From the NCBI GenBank assembly GCA_947629175.1, contig CANRCT010000003.1:16271-80270 (forward strand): 64,000 nt of DNA, read 5' to 3'. Made by a program: the position numbers and the translations under genes. Source of the DNA: an uncultured Muribaculaceae bacterium (lineage in GTDB: Bacteria > Bacteroidota > Bacteroidia > Bacteroidales > Muribaculaceae). The notes beneath the pieces were generated by a model. It ran no database searches, was not told where the DNA came from, and saw only the letters and a list, made by a program, of their open reading frames with translations. This document shows, piece by piece, positions 25,187 through 36,866 of the stretch (position 1 is its first letter; the number at the start of each line of letters is the position of its first letter).

Positions 25187-25264
25187 TGGTGGGCGCTGAG
25201 GGATTCGAACCCCCGACCCTCTGCTTGTAAGGCAGACGCTCTGAACCAGCTGAGCTAAGCGCCC
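25187..25264 (-). tRNA. tRNA-Val(TAC), CCA encoded
   Basis: GGGCGCTTAGCTCAGCTGG...CTTACAAG...GGTTCGAATCCC...GCGCCCACCA cloverleaf. Confidence 0.97.
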
Positions 25265-25316: not shown

Positions 25317-25391
25317 TGGGCGCTGAGGGATTCGAACCCCCGACCCTCTGCTTGTAAGGCAGACGCTCTGAACCAGCTGAGCTAAGCGCCC
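25317..25391 (-). tRNA. tRNA-Val(TAC), identical body, CCA not encoded
   Basis: 75-nt body identical to the 25190-25264 copy, followed by CCC rather than CCA. Confidence 0.97.
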
Positions 25392-26987: not shown

Positions 26988-27009
26988 CACGCTAAATCTC
27001 AAGAAACGA

Positions 27010-27870
27010 ATGAGACAACTTAAAATCACCAAATCGATCACCAACCGCGAAAGCGCGTCGCTCGACAAATATCTTCAGGAGATAGGCCGTGAAGAGCTTA
27101 TATCCGTAGATGAGGAAGTAGAGCTTGCACGTCGCATACGCCAAGGCGATCAGAGAGCGCTGGAAAAGTTAACTTGTGCAAATCTTCGCTTCGTGGTATC
27201 AGTAGCTAAACAGTACCAGAACCAGGGGCTCAGCCTCCCCGACCTGATCAACGAAGGCAATCTTGGCTTGATTAAAGCTGCACAGAAGTTTGACGAGACC
27301 CGCGGTTTCAAATTCATCTCCTATGCCGTGTGGTGGATACGGCAGTCAATCCTTCAGGCGCTGGCCGAACAGGCCCGTATCGTGAGGTTGCCCCTCAATC
27401 AGGTGGGAGCATTGAATAAAATCAGCAAGGAGCTATCGAAGTTCGAGCAGGAGAACGAGCGCCGTCCTTCGCCCGAAGAGCTTGCCGCACGACTCGATGT
27501 GCCCCTCGAAAAAATTTCCGACACCCTCAAAGTGTCGGGCCGCAGCATTTCGGTCGACGCCCCCTTCGTCGAGGGCGAGGACAACAGTCTGCTCGACGTG
27601 CTGACCAACGACGACTCCCCTGCCGCCGACTCCACTCTGACTCAGGAATCCCTGTCGAAAGAGGTGGATCGCGCCCTCCGTCAGCTCCATGAGCGCGAGC
27701 GCGAGATACTCAAGATGTTTTTCGGCATCGGATGTCAGGAGATGACTCTTGAGGAGATCGGAGCTAAATTTGACCTTACGCGCGAGCGCGTGCGCCAGAT
27801 CAAGGAGAAGGCGATCCGCCGCCTCAAAGGTCAGAAGAGCCGCCTGCTGAAAACCTATCTCGGTCAGTAA
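27010..27870 (+). CDS. rpoD: Primary sigma-70 factor, Bacteroidota type lacking region 1.1
   Basis: [54 protein letters not shown] and [12 protein letters not shown]. Confidence 0.95.
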
Positions 27871-27937
27871 GCCCGACCGGCATCCAACGACAATTCAGAT
27901 CGCAAGGACAATAGATGTAATATTTTTCTCATGGTGA

Positions 27938-27974
27938 GAAAGCGTGCGTCGTGATGACGTGCGCTTTTTCTTTT
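27938..27974 (+). terminator. Intrinsic terminator after rpoD
   Basis: AAAGCGTGCGTC-gtgat-GACGTGCGCTTT plus T-tract. Confidence 0.8.
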
Positions 27975-28121
27975 ATCAATCCGACAGAAAAACCGGAAGC
28001 CTGCCTTACAATATTTAACACATACATGCAACGCCGTTGCCCATCATCAGAATAACTTTGCATCGTCAACACCGACCCGCGTGTATCCTCACCGGGCCAC
28101 ATCAAAAAACTATCATAAGTC

Positions 28122-28556
28122 ATGAAACTCTGGGATCTTATCGGCGGCCTCGCCTTATACCGCCTCCTGTTCGGACGGTCATCATCGGCCCGACAATCAC
28201 AGCCGCACCCAACGCAGCCACAGTACACGCCTCTCTACAGTGGAGCGTCCGACCGCTTTGCATCTACTCCCGACGCCTCCGCCTACGATCTCAACGACCC
28301 CGACGAGATTCAGGACCGCATAGACGAACTGGAGGACATGCTGTCGGAATGCGACGACGACCGCTACGACGACATCGAGCGCGAGATAGAGACCCTGACC
28401 GCACGGGCTGAAGAGCTTAACCGGATAAACGACCGTGAATTCAACGCCCTCGTCGGCCTGGACAATGACGACGATATCGGCGCAGATTACTTCACGGCCG
28501 ACGATCCGTATGACTGCGCCGACCCTCTCGATGATGACGATCCGTCCGACTGGTAA
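28122..28556 (+). CDS. Hypothetical highly acidic protein
   Basis: Own TAACTTTG (28053-28060), hydrophobic N-terminus, Asp/Glu-rich helical core and tail. Confidence 0.7.
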   Translation: MKLWDLIGGLALYRLLFGRSSSARQSQPHPTQPQYTPLYSGASDRFASTPDASAYDLNDPDEIQDRIDELEDMLSECDDDRYDDIEREIETLTARAEELNRINDREFNALVGLDNDDDIGADYFTADDPYDCADPLDDDDPSDW

Positions 28557-28607
28557 GCGCCGGAACGCCTAACCAATCCGATGAGAGCAGCCGGGCCAAG
28601 GCGCAAA

Positions 28608-29852
28608 TCACTCTTCAGATGGCCCCAGCTCGCTTTCGAGCACTTTGCGCGACTTGTCGAACGCCTCGCCGAAACCGCGCGCCCTGATTTTCCCGTCGGG
28701 CCCGATCAATGCGAAAAACGGCCATCCTGTGATACGGAAAGCATCCATCACCGGCTTATTGTCCGGAAAATCCTCTACCTCCACCTCGATCCACGGGTGA
28801 CGGAGCATCCCTTCAAGCACTGGGCGTATGTCGTCGACTCCATCCGACGGGACTTTCCTGTCGGCCGGCAATCTTTCGTAATTCTGGCGCACCATGTCGA
28901 GCGACTCGGTCAGGCCGAGCACTTCGAGTCCGCGACTGTTATAGATATCGTGGAGCCTAAGCACATACTGGTCGATAAAGACCGATCCCGGGCAAAGTCC
29001 CCAGTGATAGATTAGCAGATAGCGCCCTTTGAAATCTTTCTCTGTAATCTTCTTTCCGTCGACAGTTGTCAATGCGAATTCAGGCACAGGCTGCCCGTCG
29101 GCAAGCCGTTCCATATCCGCCAGTTCTCGGGCGAATACACGCCCATAGTAGGTATCCTTCAGCTCCCGGCTCCAGCTATCGTATTTCGCCCTCGACTGCT
29201 CTACCGGCGTACTTGCGATGCGCTCGAGAGCATCTACAAGCAGCGACAAGGTCCCTGCGGGATTGGCGTTGACATATGCCTTTCGGGCATCACGCATCCG
29301 CGCTATTCCGGGATTCGACTTGGCGCGGCTAAACGCATTGACCTTATGAAACCATTCTTCGGCACGCGCCGTATCCTTTTCTTGCTGCGCCGCCAGCAGT
29401 TCTCTCATATAGTCATCTCTGATCTTACCGATCGAATCTTCGAGGCGAAGTGACTCCGCCAGCATAGGCTCATCGTAAATGCCGCCGCTCAACCGACTAT
29501 AGTAAATTTTCCCGACCGAACCAGAGAGCCTGATACGATCGCCATCGGTTATGATCAGAGTCAAGGCTAATCTGGAGCCCATCCGGGGCGCTCCTTTTTT
29601 CGGGTGAAATGTCATTCTGTACACCTGATCATGCTCCTGCATGCCCTTATAGAAGAAAGTATCAGGCTGCTCCACAACGATATCAAAAGCCCCCTCCCTG
29701 TTCCTTCTCAGAAAAATGACCTGCTCGAAGCGCAGCGTATCGCCCTCATGCAAGCCCGCGATGCGCCCGGAAAGCGCGAACGATTGCATATTTTCCGCTG
29801 AAGCCATAGATGCAACAGCCACAACCGACGCCAAAACAAAAGATCTGACCAT
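28608..29852 (-). CDS. Secreted TlpA/redoxin-like protein (thioredoxin-fold C-terminus, CPGS motif)
   Basis: Signal peptide; GQPVPEFALTTVDGK...FKGRYLLIYHWGLCPGS...GWPFFALIGPDGKIRARG matches the AhpC/TlpA fold pattern. Confidence 0.75.
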   Translation of the reverse strand: MVRSFVLASVVAVASMASAENMQSFALSGRIAGLHEGDTLRFEQVIFLRRNREGAFDIVVEQPDTFFYKGMQEHDQVYRMTFHPKKGAPRMGSRLALTLIITDGDRIRLSGSVGKIYYSRLSGGIYDEPMLAESLRLEDSIGKIRDDYMRELLAAQQEKDTARAEEWFHKVNAFSRAKSNPGIARMRDARKAYVNANPAGTLSLLVDALERIASTPVEQSRAKYDSWSRELKDTYYGRVFARELADMERLADGQPVPEFALTTVDGKKITEKDFKGRYLLIYHWGLCPGSVFIDQYVLRLHDIYNSRGLEVLGLTESLDMVRQNYERLPADRKVPSDGVDDIRPVLEGMLRHPWIEVEVEDFPDNKPVMDAFRITGWPFFALIGPDGKIRARGFGEAFDKSRKVLESELGPSEE

Positions 29853-29970
29853 AACAAAAATAACGGTATTGATTTATCCCACAAATATAGTAAAAACCAC
29901 ACTTTCTTTACATTTCCCTCATATGCTTAACAACATAACTGCATTTATCCCCACCAATAACATTTTTTTG

Positions 29971-29978
29971 TAACTTTG
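29971..29978 (+). promoter_or_regulatory. -7 promoter element heading the islet
   Basis: TAACTTTG consensus; predicted TSS near 29984. Confidence 0.65.
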
Positions 29979-29983
29979 CACCT

Positions 29984-30215
29984 GATTTCAGAGCCATAGA
30001 GTTGGCCAACGGAATCAACAACTTTATAAAAAGGTGTTATTGAAATTTTATCTTCGTCATTCAAACTTGGCGGTTTATATGCAGTGAAGATGAGATTGAC
30101 AATAGCACCTGCATCGGATGCTTATACCCTGCTATAATCAGCAGCTTATATGGCATATCGGTGTGGGGCTATTGTTTTATCCACTGCATAGGTACGCCAA
30201 GACCTGAATGACGGA
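29984..30215 (+). ncRNA. Candidate structured leader/ncRNA: small 5' domain plus ~160-nt rod hairpin
   Basis: Nested stems read by eye: CGTCATTCA/TGAATGACG, CTTGGCG/CGCCAAG, TATGCAGTG/CACTGCATA, GACAATAGC/GCTATTGTT, GCATCGG/TCGGTGT, ATGC/GCAT, CTGCT/AGCAG. Confidence 0.6.
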
Positions 30216-30296
30216 TAGAACAAGATACAATCCTCACACCTTTTTCATATCTAAATGTAAGCGTTGCAGAGAGGATTATGCAACCGCCAAATTAAT

Positions 30297-30626
30297 ATGA
30301 ACGCTAAAAGCCTGAAAAGAATACGCACTATTGTAACTAATGCGCGTAAGCACCCTTATTATGTCAATTATGAAATTGAATCATATGCTGAACTTAGAGG
30401 AACCTACTGTATAGACATTTCAAAGCATGGTTGTTTAATCAATAAGTTTATGTTTTGTCCTGACACTGACGGCAACATCGAGTCTATCGCTATCTACGGT
30501 GACAATCTACGGGGTCACATGAATGCCATACGTCAAAGCATGAAGATTTTTGACATGGATGTCGAGAGCGTTGATTTTGAAAGCGGATATTCTGATTATG
30601 TGGATGTATATCTAAAAACGGAATAA
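30297..30626 (+). CDS. Hypothetical protein (islet ORF1)
   Basis: ATG 30297 after A/T-rich leader; 109-aa alpha/beta-looking ORF; no family recognised. Confidence 0.7.
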   Translation: MNAKSLKRIRTIVTNARKHPYYVNYEIESYAELRGTYCIDISKHGCLINKFMFCPDTDGNIESIAIYGDNLRGHMNAIRQSMKIFDMDVESVDFESGYSDYVDVYLKTE

Positions 30627-30630
30627 TATT

Positions 30631-31314
30631 ATGTCAACCACCGTATATCTTACAAAAGGACAACGTATCTGTATCACCAATTTCCTCAAATGGTTAATGG
30701 TGGATTTTGATGTAGAGTTAAATGAAGCAATCTTTGAAGATTACATATCAGGGATTGGCTCAACTATGCACGAAGGTATAAATAATGAAATATTGGAAGC
30801 GCTCCCCCAAGAGGTCAAAGTGGATATTATCAATAAATTACTGCTGTCTTTTGGTAAAATATCTGACCTGTCAATACTATTAAAATTGTCTCAATATCTT
30901 GAGGATTCTATGATTGGGTCTTGGAGCGAATCAGTTATGATTCGTTCTATAATTGTTATTGCTCAATATTTCTTCGGTGAGTCTGTCAAGATTGTTCCAA
31001 GGACATTCAACAAACCCACATCTAAATTATCAGTATATTTGGATAATGCCACTTTTGAGATAACCACTTTGATGTCGTCTTTCTCTGCGCAAAAACTTGT
31101 TAGAATAACTTTAGACGATAAAATTCTTCATAAAGTTATGGAATATGAAAAACAGCCCTCTCAATTTGACATAGAGGAACTTTTAGGCAATTTACTATGT
31201 ATGCCCTATGCTCCCGTTGATTTATCTCGTTGTGAGTACATACATAGCTCATTTAAGAATATGAGCTACTTGGATATTAAGCTGACAAATATCATACCCC
31301 AAAGACATCCATAA
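30631..31314 (+). CDS. Hypothetical protein (islet ORF2)
   Basis: 227-aa ORF in AT-rich DNA, 4 nt after ORF1; no family recognised. Confidence 0.75.
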   Translation: MSTTVYLTKGQRICITNFLKWLMVDFDVELNEAIFEDYISGIGSTMHEGINNEILEALPQEVKVDIINKLLLSFGKISDLSILLKLSQYLEDSMIGSWSESVMIRSIIVIAQYFFGESVKIVPRTFNKPTSKLSVYLDNATFEITTLMSSFSAQKLVRITLDDKILHKVMEYEKQPSQFDIEELLGNLLCMPYAPVDLSRCEYIHSSFKNMSYLDIKLTNIIPQRHP

Positions 31315-31386
31315 CACCCTCCATAAAATTAGCTATCTAAAGAATTATGCCCATATTAACCACAACACAATATATGAGTATTAAAT

Positions 31387-31947
31387 ATGGTTACGTTTGA
31401 CAGCCCTGAATTAAAAAAATTGGTAGAGCATGACAATCAGATCCTTTCCAAAGGCAAGATTGATTGGGAAGCCAAAATACTGCCTATCGCCAACAAGATA
31501 GCGGAATGTGAGAAACACTTAACTGTCCCTGATGTTGCATTAAAGCTATATTCAGAGGAACATCCTGAATTTTCCATAGATAAACATAAGGCTGATTTTG
31601 AGGAAAGATTAGTTAGAGCAAAAACCGAGTTAACCCAGCTTATAGCGTCAATATCAGACAAAGAGGCTAATGATAGGATTGAAGCTCTTGCCAACGAAAT
31701 TAAGAATTGGGAAAAACAAGAAGGGCAATTTTCATGGAAAGATGTGGCACTTTCCATACTTGAACTTCCTGAACGAATCATCTTCGATTATGACCGTTGC
31801 CCTGATTGCGGACATTCAAGAATCCGCATTTATTTCCATTCTCCTAAATGGACATGGGCTATGATGTGCGGCAAAGCAGGTGAAATGGCAATTTGTCCGT
31901 CCTGCAAAACACAATCTGGATTATTCGGAATAATAACAAGCGCCTAA
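31387..31947 (+). CDS. Hypothetical coiled-coil protein with C-terminal Zn-ribbon (islet ORF3)
   Basis: Helical N-terminus then CPDC...SPKWTWAMMCG...CPSC. Confidence 0.75.
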   Translation: MVTFDSPELKKLVEHDNQILSKGKIDWEAKILPIANKIAECEKHLTVPDVALKLYSEEHPEFSIDKHKADFEERLVRAKTELTQLIASISDKEANDRIEALANEIKNWEKQEGQFSWKDVALSILELPERIIFDYDRCPDCGHSRIRIYFHSPKWTWAMMCGKAGEMAICPSCKTQSGLFGIITSA

Positions 31948-31950
31948 GTC

Positions 31951-32094
31951 ATGTATTTAATATTAGACCAACTCGCGAGTAGAGCGAAACTGATATGGAT
32001 TCTCATCCTCTGTCTTATATTCACATTCTATATTTTAGACCCTATTGTGAAACGGATAGATAAGTGGATAGACAATCACAAAAAACGTAAATAA
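31951..32094 (+). CDS. 47-aa single-pass membrane peptide (not in ORF track)
   Basis: MYLILDQLASRAKLIWILILCLIFTFYILDPIVKRIDKWIDNHKKRK; fills the gap 3 nt after ORF3 and 5 nt before the SanA-like gene. Confidence 0.55.
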   Translation: MYLILDQLASRAKLIWILILCLIFTFYILDPIVKRIDKWIDNHKKRK

Positions 32095-32099
32095 AAAGC

Positions 32100-32720
32100 A
32101 TGAGCCGTATGCAGAAGATAATATTTCATTGTCCCATAATCGCTACAATCATACTGATCTGTATGATTGGTATATGTTATATTGTCGTTTCGGTCAATGC
32201 CAGTAAGAAGACATACACCATTGTGAACTGTATTCCACAAAATAAGGTTGGCCTACTTCTCGGCACTTCTCCGACAACTCCGCAAGGAGAGCACAACTAT
32301 TATTTCGACAATCGGATTCAGGCCGCAGCGCAACTTTACCATAATGGCAGAATCAGCCACATAATAGCAAGTGGTGGCGATTACTCCAGAGAAAACGGTT
32401 GCAATGAACTCACAGCCATGCGGGATTCATTAGTAGCTCTTGGAGTTCCTGACAGCATTATCACATTGGACTATCAGGGCTTGCGCACTCTTAATTCAAT
32501 AGTCAAAGCGAAAGAGATCTACGGCCTTGACAGCGTCACTATAATCTCGCAAAAATATCACAACGAGAGGGCCATTTGGCTTGCAGATCATTATGGACTT
32601 AATGCAATAGCCTACAATGCAAAGACTCCCGATATTACGGACAAACGAATCAAAAACATCTCACGCGAACTTCTTGCAAGAGTCAAGATGGTTATTGATA
32701 TTTTAATGCGTAATCAATAA
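32100..32720 (+). CDS. SanA/YdcF (DUF218) family protein
   Basis: TM anchor, GLLLGT, YFDNRIQAAAQLY, IIASGG, NELTAMRDSL, DYQGLRTLNS, ISQKYHNERA and RELLARVK. Confidence 0.9.
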   Translation: MSRMQKIIFHCPIIATIILICMIGICYIVVSVNASKKTYTIVNCIPQNKVGLLLGTSPTTPQGEHNYYFDNRIQAAAQLYHNGRISHIIASGGDYSRENGCNELTAMRDSLVALGVPDSIITLDYQGLRTLNSIVKAKEIYGLDSVTIISQKYHNERAIWLADHYGLNAIAYNAKTPDITDKRIKNISRELLARVKMVIDILMRNQ

Positions 32721-32725
32721 TCGCA

Positions 32726-32765
32726 ACAATTCCGACCGCACAATTCCGGGACAATTCCGACCGCA
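32726..32765. repeat. Three tandem ACAATTCCG copies (two full ACAATTCCGACCGCA) at the right edge of the islet
   Basis: ACAATTCCGACCGCA at 32726-32740 and 32751-32765, ACAATTCCGGG at 32740-32750. Confidence 0.8.
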
Positions 32766-32792
32766 GATTTTCGGGATGATTTTCGCTGGGGA

Positions 32793-32824
32793 TTTGGAGA
32801 TTAGGCGGGAAATCACTACCTTTG
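32793..32824 (+). promoter_or_regulatory. Consensus -33/-7 promoter of rplY
   Basis: TTTG 32793-32796, 20-nt spacer, TACCTTTG 32817-32824. Confidence 0.8.
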
Positions 32825-32903
32825 CACCGCTTTTTAGGCATCCCGTGTGATGGGAAATTAAGGAGCGCTTAATTTTTAGTAACACAAACAAAACGAACAA
32901 ACA

Positions 32904-33563
32904 ATGAAGACATTCCAGCTCAGCGCCGAGCCCCGTACTGATCTCGGCAAGAAGGCCGCCAAGGCTCTCCGCAAGGAAAACAAGATCCCCGTAGTGCTCA
33001 ACGGCGGCGAAGTGATCGACCTCCCCTACAACGGCAAGCTCCGCGAGGGCGAGAAGGTGGTCGTGATCGAGAAAGACCAGTCCAAAGGCCTCATCACCAC
33101 CGATCTGGCCGTGACCACCGACTCCGTGCGCAAGCTCATTTATACTCCTGACATCTTCGCTATCGAGCTCGACCTCCACGGCGAAAAGCGTATGGCCGTG
33201 CTGAAAGACATCCAGTTCCACCCCGTGAAGGACACCATCCTCCACATCGACCTGCTTGAGGTGAACGACAAGAAGCCCGTCACCATCGAGGTACCCGTGC
33301 AGCTCGAAGGCCACGCCGAGGGCGTGAAAGCCGGCGGTAAGCTGACTCTCTCGATGAAGAAGATCAAGGTGAAGGCCACCTACGACAAGATCCCCGAGCG
33401 CGTGGTAGTCAACGTAGACAACCTCGGCCTCGGCAAGACCATCCAGATAGGCGATCTCCACTACGAGGGTCTCGAACTGACCAACGCCAAGAATGCCGTT
33501 GTCTGCGCCGTTCAGCTGACCCGCGCAGCCCGTGGTGCGGCAGCCGCAGCAGCTGCGAAGTAA
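32904..33563 (+). CDS. rplY: 50S ribosomal protein L25/Ctc
   Basis: RTDLGKKAAKALRKENKIPVVL, KDIQFHPVKD.ILHIDL, GVKAGGKL and IQIGDL motifs. Confidence 0.95.
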   Translation: MKTFQLSAEPRTDLGKKAAKALRKENKIPVVLNGGEVIDLPYNGKLREGEKVVVIEKDQSKGLITTDLAVTTDSVRKLIYTPDIFAIELDLHGEKRMAVLKDIQFHPVKDTILHIDLLEVNDKKPVTIEVPVQLEGHAEGVKAGGKLTLSMKKIKVKATYDKIPERVVVNVDNLGLGKTIQIGDLHYEGLELTNAKNAVVCAVQLTRAARGAAAAAAAK

Positions 33564-33596
33564 ACCAGTCACCTCTGATTCATAACCCGGTATCAA

Positions 33597-34160
33597 ATGA
33601 AATATCTGATAGTCGGGCTTGGCAATATCGGCGACGAGTACGCCATGACACGCCACAACATAGGTTTTATGATATTGGATGCCTTTGCGAAGGCATCCAA
33701 TATTACTTTTACCCCCGAGCGTTATGGCGACGTGGCCCGGATGCGGCTCAAGAACGCGCAGCTGATACTCCTCAAGCCCTCCACCTACATGAATCTCAGC
33801 GGCAACGCCGTGCGCTACTGGCGTGACCGCGAGAAGATCGACAACGACCATCTGCTCGTGGTGGTCGACGACATCGCGCTCCCCTTCGGAGCCATACGCC
33901 TCAAGGCCAACGGCAGCGACGCCGGCCACAACGGCCTCAAAAACATCGCCGCCATGCTCGGCACGCAGGCCTATCCGCGTCTGCGGTTCGGGATCGGCAA
34001 CGACTACCAGCGCGGACAGCAGATCGAATACGTGCTCGGGGCTTTCACGCTCGATCAGCGGCAGCAGCTGCCTACGCGTATTGAGGTGGCCACAGAGGCC
34101 ATCAGGGCTTTCTGCCTCTCGGGCCTCGACTTCGCGATGTGTAATTTCAACAACAAGTGA
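33597..34160 (+). CDS. pth: Peptidyl-tRNA hydrolase
   Basis: [32 protein letters not shown] and RLRFGIG motifs. Confidence 0.97.
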
Positions 34161-36794: not shown

Positions 36795-36866
36795 TATCCC
36801 CGTGGGGAGTCGAACCCCAATCGTTGGAACCGGAATCCAATATTCTATCCATTGAACTACGGAGAC
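36795..36866 (-). tRNA. tRNA-Arg(CCG)
   Basis: GTCTCCGTAGTTCAATGGATAGAA...TTGGA-TTCCGGT-TCCAA...GGTTCGACTCC...CGGGGATA; CCA not encoded. Confidence 0.95.

Follow-up and report, generated by a model that had tools for sequence, protein, structure and literature searches.

A large RNA with two mutually exclusive conserved folds heads unrelated accessory genes in gut Bacteroidales

Introduction

Bacteroidales dominate the mammalian gut, and to our knowledge few cis-regulatory RNAs are known in them. The closest described systems are the trp, his and pyrBI attenuators of E. coli and the riboswitch platforms, cis-acting 5' leaders in which one segment has two exclusive partners; in the attenuators one helix stands directly before a U-tract. 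The leader described here shares these properties (its shared segment is CCUCACACC, X/P1b below), and the outcome of its folding would likewise gate the entry of RNA polymerase into the genes behind it. It differs in carrying neither a leader peptide nor a recognisable aptamer, and in that a whole rod of ~215 nt re-pairs into two arm hairpins, whereas the attenuators exchange pairings locally (1:2/2:3/3:4). Here there is also an extra conserved pairing that reaches beyond the U-tract into the 5' UTR, the genes controlled have no common function, and the unit itself is portable and occurs in multiple copies.

Other systems are similar in single respects. The c-di-GMP-I (GEMM) riboswitch is also one leader class that precedes many unrelated surface, adhesin and unknown genes in several copies per genome, but the present leader has no Rfam match and a long-rod architecture, and the likeness is one of logic only. 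Conserved leaders that mark acquired AT-rich surface operons are represented by ops/JUMPstart (RfaH) and by the UpxY-dependent capsule leaders of Bacteroides; these are short DNA or RNA motifs read by a NusG paralogue, in contrast to the ~300-nt RNA with two covariation-supported folds found here. Viroids, which are replicating RNAs, show rod versus metastable-hairpin isomerism, and the rod of the Listeria prfA 5' UTR is a simple thermosensor that controls expression by masking the ribosome-binding site. Viroids have in common with our leader a long imperfect rod whose arms can also fold locally, and prfA a 5' UTR rod that controls expression, in neither case with any sequence relationship. 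A promoter-bearing head followed by exchangeable AT-skewed genes is known from integrons (Pc plus attI) and from the rAID-1 arrays of Bacteroidales (bioRxiv 10.1101/471110), but in our case the Pfam families listed for the neighbours of the leader include no integrase or XerD-type recombinase, attC-like repeats are absent between the genes, and there are usually only 1-3 cargo genes.

The locus lies in a 64,000-nt stretch of an uncultured Muribaculaceae genome (GenBank assembly GCA_947629175.1, contig CANRCT010000003.1, forward strand), referred to as the window, to which all coordinates refer. An initial annotation, made from the letters alone, flagged a long hairpin at 29984-30215. We find that this hairpin is one copy of a large folded RNA that heads many unrelated accessory genes in gut Bacteroidales, and that the family is absent from Rfam 15. 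A literature search, which was not exhaustive, returned no description of it.

Results

Extent of the leader and upstream signals

The whole unit occupies window positions 29971-30284 on the + strand, with the originally flagged hairpin as its core. It consists, in order, of a -7 box, a 5' hairpin, a rod of ~215 nt, a U-tract, and then a long-range pairing (X:X') that extends to the 5' UTR of the gene next downstream. Upstream of the rod the following features were located:

29946..29962, + strand: upstream box TATCCCCACCAATAACA ((T)ATAGCCCCACCAATRACA in relatives), at a fixed position exactly 22 nt before the -7 box
29971..29978, + strand: Bacteroidetes-type -7 promoter box TAACTTTG (TAnnTTTG), by motif match
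29984..30016, + strand: 5' lead hairpin, GAUUUC/GGAAUC plus GCCA/UGGC with loop UAGAGU, by RNAfold and compensatory variants

Transcription is predicted to start near 29984. The TAnnTTTG motif is found 33-99 nt upstream of P1a, the 5' strand of the rod's closing helix, in 136 of 141 copies (mode 52-58 nt). In the interval from the U-tract to the ORF it is present in no more than 2 of 139 copies, compared with a background of 6%. The 5' domain, which had been proposed to close by pairing of 29985-90 with 30041-46, is closed instead by a conserved stem of GAUUUC (29984-89) and GGAAUC (30011-16), with compensatory forms in relatives (GAUUCAC/GUGAAUC, GAUUUAC/GUAAAUC). The loop of this first hairpin is AGAG, UAGAGU, GGAG or AAGAGA in most copies. 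The upstream box, which resembles GGUGUGGGGCUAUUG of the rod in reverse complement, occurs at its fixed position in ~20 of 137 copies. It could serve as a site for a regulator, or as a third partner for pairing where transcripts enter from upstream.

The rod fold

The nested stems originally proposed are present in the sequence. On the + strand, 29984-30215 folds in RNAfold at -95.9 kcal/mol, compared with -54.2 +/- 4.5 for shuffled sequences (z -9.3, none of 200 shuffles as good), and on the - strand at -77.2 kcal/mol (z -7.1), so that the + strand is the better folder. The minimum free energy fold within 30055-30213 has 63 pairs, 7 of them G-U, in agreement with the initial count of about 60 with seven G-U. 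The rod does not end there. Three further helices extend it outward (UUUUAUC/GAUAGAA, UAUU/GAUA and then P1), and the U-tract that had been reported missing lies just outside the range first considered. These outer helices and the U-tract escaped the initial annotation, as did the X:X' pairing and the second, exclusive fold described below. Between P1a and helix 8 the rod also contains P2 and variable helices, and its main parts are:

30031..30245, + strand: core rod, covariance-model match (model R1, 244 bits)
30031-37 / 30236-42, + strand: P1, AAGGUGU / ACACCUU, closing the rod
30100-17 / 30157-74, + strand: helix 8, strands H8a / H8b
30118-56, + strand: apical hairpin of the rod
30241-45, + strand: U-tract TTTTT, directly after P1

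Model R1 was built from ten BLAST homologues and has 217 positions and 73 pairs. Across 87 strong copies standard pairs form in 97.1% of cells, and double-sided changes are seen in 39 of the 73 pairs, compared with 40-47% and 15-22 pairs when the 3' partners are slid; none of 500 shuffles matched the observed values. P1 co-varies by subclass (AAGGUGU/ACACCUU, AAGACGU/ACGUCUU, AGAGCGU/ACGCU and AAAGCGU/ACGCUUU). Model scores are 150-246 bits for the + strand but drop to 30-45 bits when the same loci are read in reverse, and several rod pairs are conserved as G-U. Together, these indicate that the + strand is the functional one and acts as RNA, as the initial annotation had argued from its G-U pairs. 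In the internal loops and helix 8, sequence conservation exceeds what pairing requires.

The alternative fold

Each arm of the rod can also fold on itself, giving a second structure with two hairpins:

30032..30110, + strand: 5'-arm hairpin, AGGUGUUAUUG (30032-42) with CAAUAGCACCU (30100-10), inner helix AUCUUC:GAAGAU, by RNAfold and covariation
30160..30245, + strand: 3'-arm terminator-like hairpin, GGUGUGGGG (30160-68) with CCUCACACC (30232-40), inner helix UUUUAUCC:GGAUAGAA, followed by UUUUU at 30241-45

Alone, the 5' arm folds at -32.3 kcal/mol and the 3' arm at -31.4 kcal/mol (RNAfold). In the former, P1a/P2 pair with H8a, the 5' strand of helix 8; in the latter, a GC-rich helix of 9 bp is followed directly by U5. 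RNAalifold on 89 3' arms predicts the same tail helix together with an inner helix UUUUAUCC:GGAUAAAA. The U-run is preceded by a 12-nt tail, made up of X and P1b, whose best partner in every subclass is the GUGGG box of helix 8 at a distance of 80-90 nt upstream, and the tail helices are compensatory among relatives (GGUGUGGGG:CCUCACACC, AGCGUGAG:CUCACGCU, GGGCGUGAG:CUCGCGCUC and GGAGUGGGU:ACCCACUCC). The U-run is 5-6 nt long in 98 of 141 copies. Both hairpins are supported by covariation, with 91.3% of cells paired in the 5' arm (51 diverse copies; 43-67% when slid) and 93.5% in the 3' arm (89 copies; 46-59% when slid), and with 63 double-change cells against 6-22 and 178 against 21-61, respectively, part of which separates two large subclasses, so that the independent events are fewer than the cell counts suggest. 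As the rod alone needs no complementarity within one arm, this pairing indicates that the alternative fold is itself under selection.

The P1b/X segment has two exclusive partners, P1a in the rod and the GUGGG box in the 3'-arm hairpin. The locus therefore has two mutually exclusive conserved folds sharing one segment, and a stable helix, GGUGUGGGG:CCUCACACC, followed by U5, as in a terminator and antiterminator pair. The 3'-arm hairpin with its U-tract looks like a transcription stop signal. For the window copy the rod form has a computed energy of -105.8 kcal/mol, compared with -86.1 for the separate hairpins added together (lead, 5' arm, apex, 3' arm), and since the rod is ~20 kcal/mol more stable the hairpin form would be rare without kinetic trapping. 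In the nascent chain the 5'-arm hairpin is the minimum free energy structure until about 30170, and the rod from about 30190. A helix stands directly before the U-tract in both folds (P1 in the rod, H8b:X/P1b in the hairpin form); because P1 also abuts the U-tract, either fold could by sequence be the ON state, and termination need not be the regulated step.

A conserved pairing into the 5' UTR of the cargo

A further pairing joins the leader to the gene behind it, through two elements:

30229..30235, + strand: X, AAUCCUC, unpaired in the rod; the alternative terminator-like helix takes up part of it
30263..30284, + strand: small hairpin GUUGCA/UGCAAC, the loop carrying X' (GAGGAUU, 30271-77), ending 13 nt before the ORF1 start codon

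X comprises the 7-8 nt immediately 5' of P1b, and in nearly all copies a complementary X' is found 18-35 nt past the U-tract, usually in the loop of a small hairpin with a variable stem (GUUUC/GAAAC, GCGCC/GGCGC). The two elements change jointly among relatives (CAGUUCCU/GGGAACUG, UAAACCUC/GAGGUUUA, UAAUCUCC/GGAGAUUA, GACUCCC/GGGAGUC and GGUUCUC/GAGAACC). Over 30 distinct X variants the mean duplex energy is -8.8 kcal/mol for cognate and -5.5 for non-cognate combinations (permutation p < 1e-4). X:X' crosses P1, and would therefore produce an H-type pseudoknot if both form together. A Shine-Dalgarno/anti-Shine-Dalgarno reading of CCUC/GAGG can be set aside, as X' is unlike a Shine-Dalgarno sequence in other subclasses (GAGAACC, AGUGCC, GGGUAU).

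Family membership and distribution

Searching 27000-34000 with cmscan against Rfam 15 at E <= 1 returned two chance matches elsewhere and none on the leader. At the gathering score the whole window contains three tRNAs and nothing else. Two of these (25190-25264 and 25317-25391, - strand) have an equal Rfam score of 73.2 bits, are 127 nt apart and look like a tandem duplicate; the third is at 36795-36866. The interval separating DUF218 from rplY has a weak match to GHRLOS at 32807-32879 (24 bits, E 0.01), which is almost certainly due to chance; this interval could hold an L25 leader.

Homologues were found by BLAST in sister genomes, with three in one genome. Of the 70 genomes available for the genus, 44 carry the leader according to model R1, each in 1-4 copies, and the other 26 have none. 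In a wider sample of Bacteroidales it is found in at least 47 of 401 genomes and at least 31 of 237 genera, which is an undercount as five candidates were scored per genome. The exact 22-mer AAGGTGTTATTGAAATTTTATC occurs in >119 contigs, almost all labelled Muribaculaceae, Muribaculum, Duncaniella, Sangeribacter or "uncultured Porphyromonadaceae", and a 20-mer of the second subclass occurs in assemblies of Prevotella, Alloprevotella, Paraprevotella, Parabacteroides, Alistipes and Bacteroidaceae. This 20-mer was also found in two contigs binned as Lachnospiraceae and Methanosarcinales MAGs (L240 and L241), which are probably mis-binned Bacteroidales. Searches of IMG/VR and of phage and plasmid collections gave no match to the leader.

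Within the window's own genome (G000) BLAST finds one copy and the model adds one diverged copy, so the element is not a MITE or other repeat of this genome. The second copy (G000:C2:125122-125376, - strand; locus L190:4123-4377; 255 nt, 33 bits) belongs to the subclass with P1a AAGGCGU and lies 53 nt upstream of a gene for a 632-aa N6_N4 DNA methylase. It carries the same C-U mismatch in P1 and in the alternative helix.

Cargo genes and their exchange

Most loci have an ORF in the same orientation that begins no more than about 110 nt from the leader, mostly at 50-65 nt. The cargo of the window comprises three ORFs:

30297-30626, + strand: ORF1, 109 aa
30631-31314, + strand: ORF2, 227 aa
31387-31947, + strand: ORF3, 186 aa, with a C-terminal Cys4 motif CPDC...CPSC

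None has a significant match in Pfam, PADLOC or PHROGs; the Cys4 motif of ORF3 resembles a zinc ribbon, without a family match. The cargo region (30297..31947) is 33-41% GC compared with 54-60% in its flanks, in keeping with the initial description of an RNA heading an AT-rich islet, and the gaps between its ORFs are 3-72 nt.

Across 77 loci the first ORFs include, by Pfam, 16 BspA-type LRR proteins, 4 TerB, 3 VWA, 3 HEPN (pEK499_p136) and 2 LytTR, as well as outer-membrane barrels, and the majority have no family. The second and third ORFs (109 later ORFs in all) are a similar mix and then housekeeping genes, which indicates that the cargo is short; it is usually 1-3 genes. Copies of the second subclass head genes for a DNA methylase, an acyltransferase_3, a sulfatase-like protein and an HTH protein. 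Upstream neighbours at 75 loci are unrelated to one another, as judged from their listed Pfam families.

The slot at 29850-32250 is also present in a sister species (G007; locus L052, G007:C27), with the same order of a thioredoxin-like gene followed, beyond leader and cargo, by DUF218-rplY-pth. The flanks are 92-94% identical and the leader 92%, whereas the cargo is unrelated: homology is lost ~9 nt past the U-tract and returns only within the DUF218 gene. G007 has an additional 1.4-kb insertion after DUF218. In other loci cargo is shared as mosaics. The simplest explanation is that cargo is swapped by homologous recombination through the conserved leader of ~300 bp. The gene upstream of the leader, encoding a 414-aa thioredoxin/AhpC-like protein (28608-29852, - strand), is confined to these two among the 70 genomes of the genus and so is accessory itself, which means that it leads to no empty site for comparison.

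Discussion

Proposed mechanism

We consider, with a probability of roughly 0.6, that the element is a portable, cis-acting, bistable 5' leader of ~300 nt on the islet mRNA, which acts as an attenuator and is likely to determine the expression or silence of the genes that follow. The initial annotation had offered an attenuator- or antisense-type leader of mobile cargo. The first part holds in the broad sense, given the leader's own promoter, the fixed distance to the ORF, the variable cargo and the terminator-like alternative fold, and the second, a simple antisense RNA, is not supported. From the computed elements (both folds, X:X', the promoter and its spacing pattern, the scarcity of internal promoters, and the heterogeneity and swapping of cargo) we infer a model in which termination would occur at the U-tract, one of the folds would give read-through, and some factor or condition would bias the choice. 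Kinetic attenuation appears to be its most economical form.

In such a scheme transcription would begin at the leader's own TAnnTTTG promoter, and the 5' arm would fold on itself as it emerges, with P1a/P2 pairing with H8a. Two outcomes may follow. If the 3' arm also folds on itself, the GC-rich GGUGUGGGG:CCUCACACC helix would form in front of the U-tract as a terminator-like hairpin, a leader RNA of ~260 nt would be released and the cargo would be off. Alternatively, the 3' arm may invade the 5' hairpin from an unpaired toehold, GCAUCGG, beside the apical hairpin, producing the favoured rod; the GUGGG box would then be sequestered and the weaker, AU-rich P1 alone would close the structure. 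In read-through transcripts the free AAUCCUC could pair with GAGGAUU in the cargo 5' UTR, 20 nt before the start codon, and the pseudoknot of X:X' and P1 may lock the state or set translation or stability.

Several described types of leader do not fit. The only ATG-started ORF in the leader (15 codons from 30092) has AUA in the family consensus, which is against a ribosome-mediated attenuator of the trp type. A metabolite riboswitch would be recognised by coherent genes, but the 77 first and 109 later ORFs are heterogeneous, and downstream genes without a common function would be unusual for one. T-box and type III antitoxin readings were rejected on anatomy and neighbours.

Alternative explanations

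Post-transcriptional control is a serious rival to attenuation and could coexist with it, although as the main account we consider it rather unlikely. The U-tract would then not be used as a terminator, and the fold of the leader on the mRNA, be it the rod, the hairpins or the X:X' pseudoknot beside the start codon, would set ribosome access or RNase sensitivity; the rod of ~60 bp, with its long near-perfect duplex stretches, could be an RNase III substrate. The covarying X:X', 13-30 nt before the start codon, is meaningful solely in a full-length mRNA, and with both folds abutting the U-tract, termination could be equal in the two. However, this leaves unexplained why a GC-rich helix and U5-6 are conserved in the alternative fold of all subclasses.

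It is less likely still that the element is a stand-alone gene for a trans-acting RNA, a protein-sequestering or base-pairing rod with its own terminator, from which the downstream genes would be transcribed by leakage. Such a gene could be expected to have the promoter and terminator-like 3' end that are observed, several copies per genome, and the conservation of internal loops and helix 8 beyond pairing needs. But in most loci the ORF behind the leader has a fixed orientation and lies at a fixed distance, such ORFs lack their own promoter box, and X:X' physically couples the RNA to the 5' UTR of each cargo. The patchy distribution and variable copy number are also unlike those of housekeeping RNAs, and a 6S-like or other housekeeping rod RNA in particular is not compatible with 0-4 copies per genome tied to a downstream ORF.

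A role at the DNA level, as a cruciform or as a recombination site that takes up cassettes in the manner of integrons (attC/attI) or rAID, is suggested by the slot shared between G000 and G007, where different cargo follows a 92%-identical element with the break ~9 nt after the U-tract, and by the mosaic cargo of related loci. We regard it as very improbable. There is no integrase or recombinase among the 25 most frequent Pfam families upstream (75 loci) or in the downstream tallies, so that an integron or rAID-1 platform finds no support there, and the gaps between the cargo ORFs of the window contain no repeated site. Moreover, the conserved G-U pairs and a strand asymmetry of ~200 bits favour RNA, and homologous recombination through the ~300-bp leader is sufficient to account for the swapping.

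The remaining suggestions of the initial annotation, an antitoxin or RNA partner of ORF1/ORF2, an antisense immunity RNA like P4 CI/c4, or a retron RNA without its reverse transcriptase (RT), drew on a long hairpin directly upstream of small ORFs without known function and can be dismissed almost entirely, as this RNA is found ahead of dozens of unrelated genes in >140 loci, no Rfam family matches it at E <= 1 (C4 included), neither the ORFs flanking it in the window nor the listed neighbour tallies contain an RT domain or RVT family, and the anatomy is wrong for a retron, with no msr stem-loops between a closing repeat and the long hairpin.

Significance

Surface, defence and envelope-modifying genes are phase-variable classes in other bacteria. 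We entertain the possibility, well short of the attenuator reading itself, that the leader represents a new class of large RNA switches that respond to an effector and are peculiar to gut Bacteroidales; it would place a scattered set of horizontally acquired surface, defence and envelope-modifying genes under one common signal and, in addition, serve as a ~300-bp homology arm for the exchange of cassettes between loci and species. If true, the leader would be an integrase-free "plug-in socket" for accessory genes.

As both conformations are evolutionarily fixed, the family would offer a rare model, open to direct test, of an RNA switch that involves the whole molecule and is under kinetic control. 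An Rfam entry would improve the annotation of long "empty" intergenic regions in gut metagenomes. If the attenuator reading holds, this is among the larger structured leaders of bacteria, distributed in Muribaculaceae, Prevotella, Alloprevotella, Parabacteroides, Alistipes and Bacteroidaceae, and controlling BspA adhesin-like, outer-membrane, restriction-modification and other accessory genes. It would then reveal a regulon made up of newly acquired genes, and may account for the way in which these are installed with control of their expression already in place.
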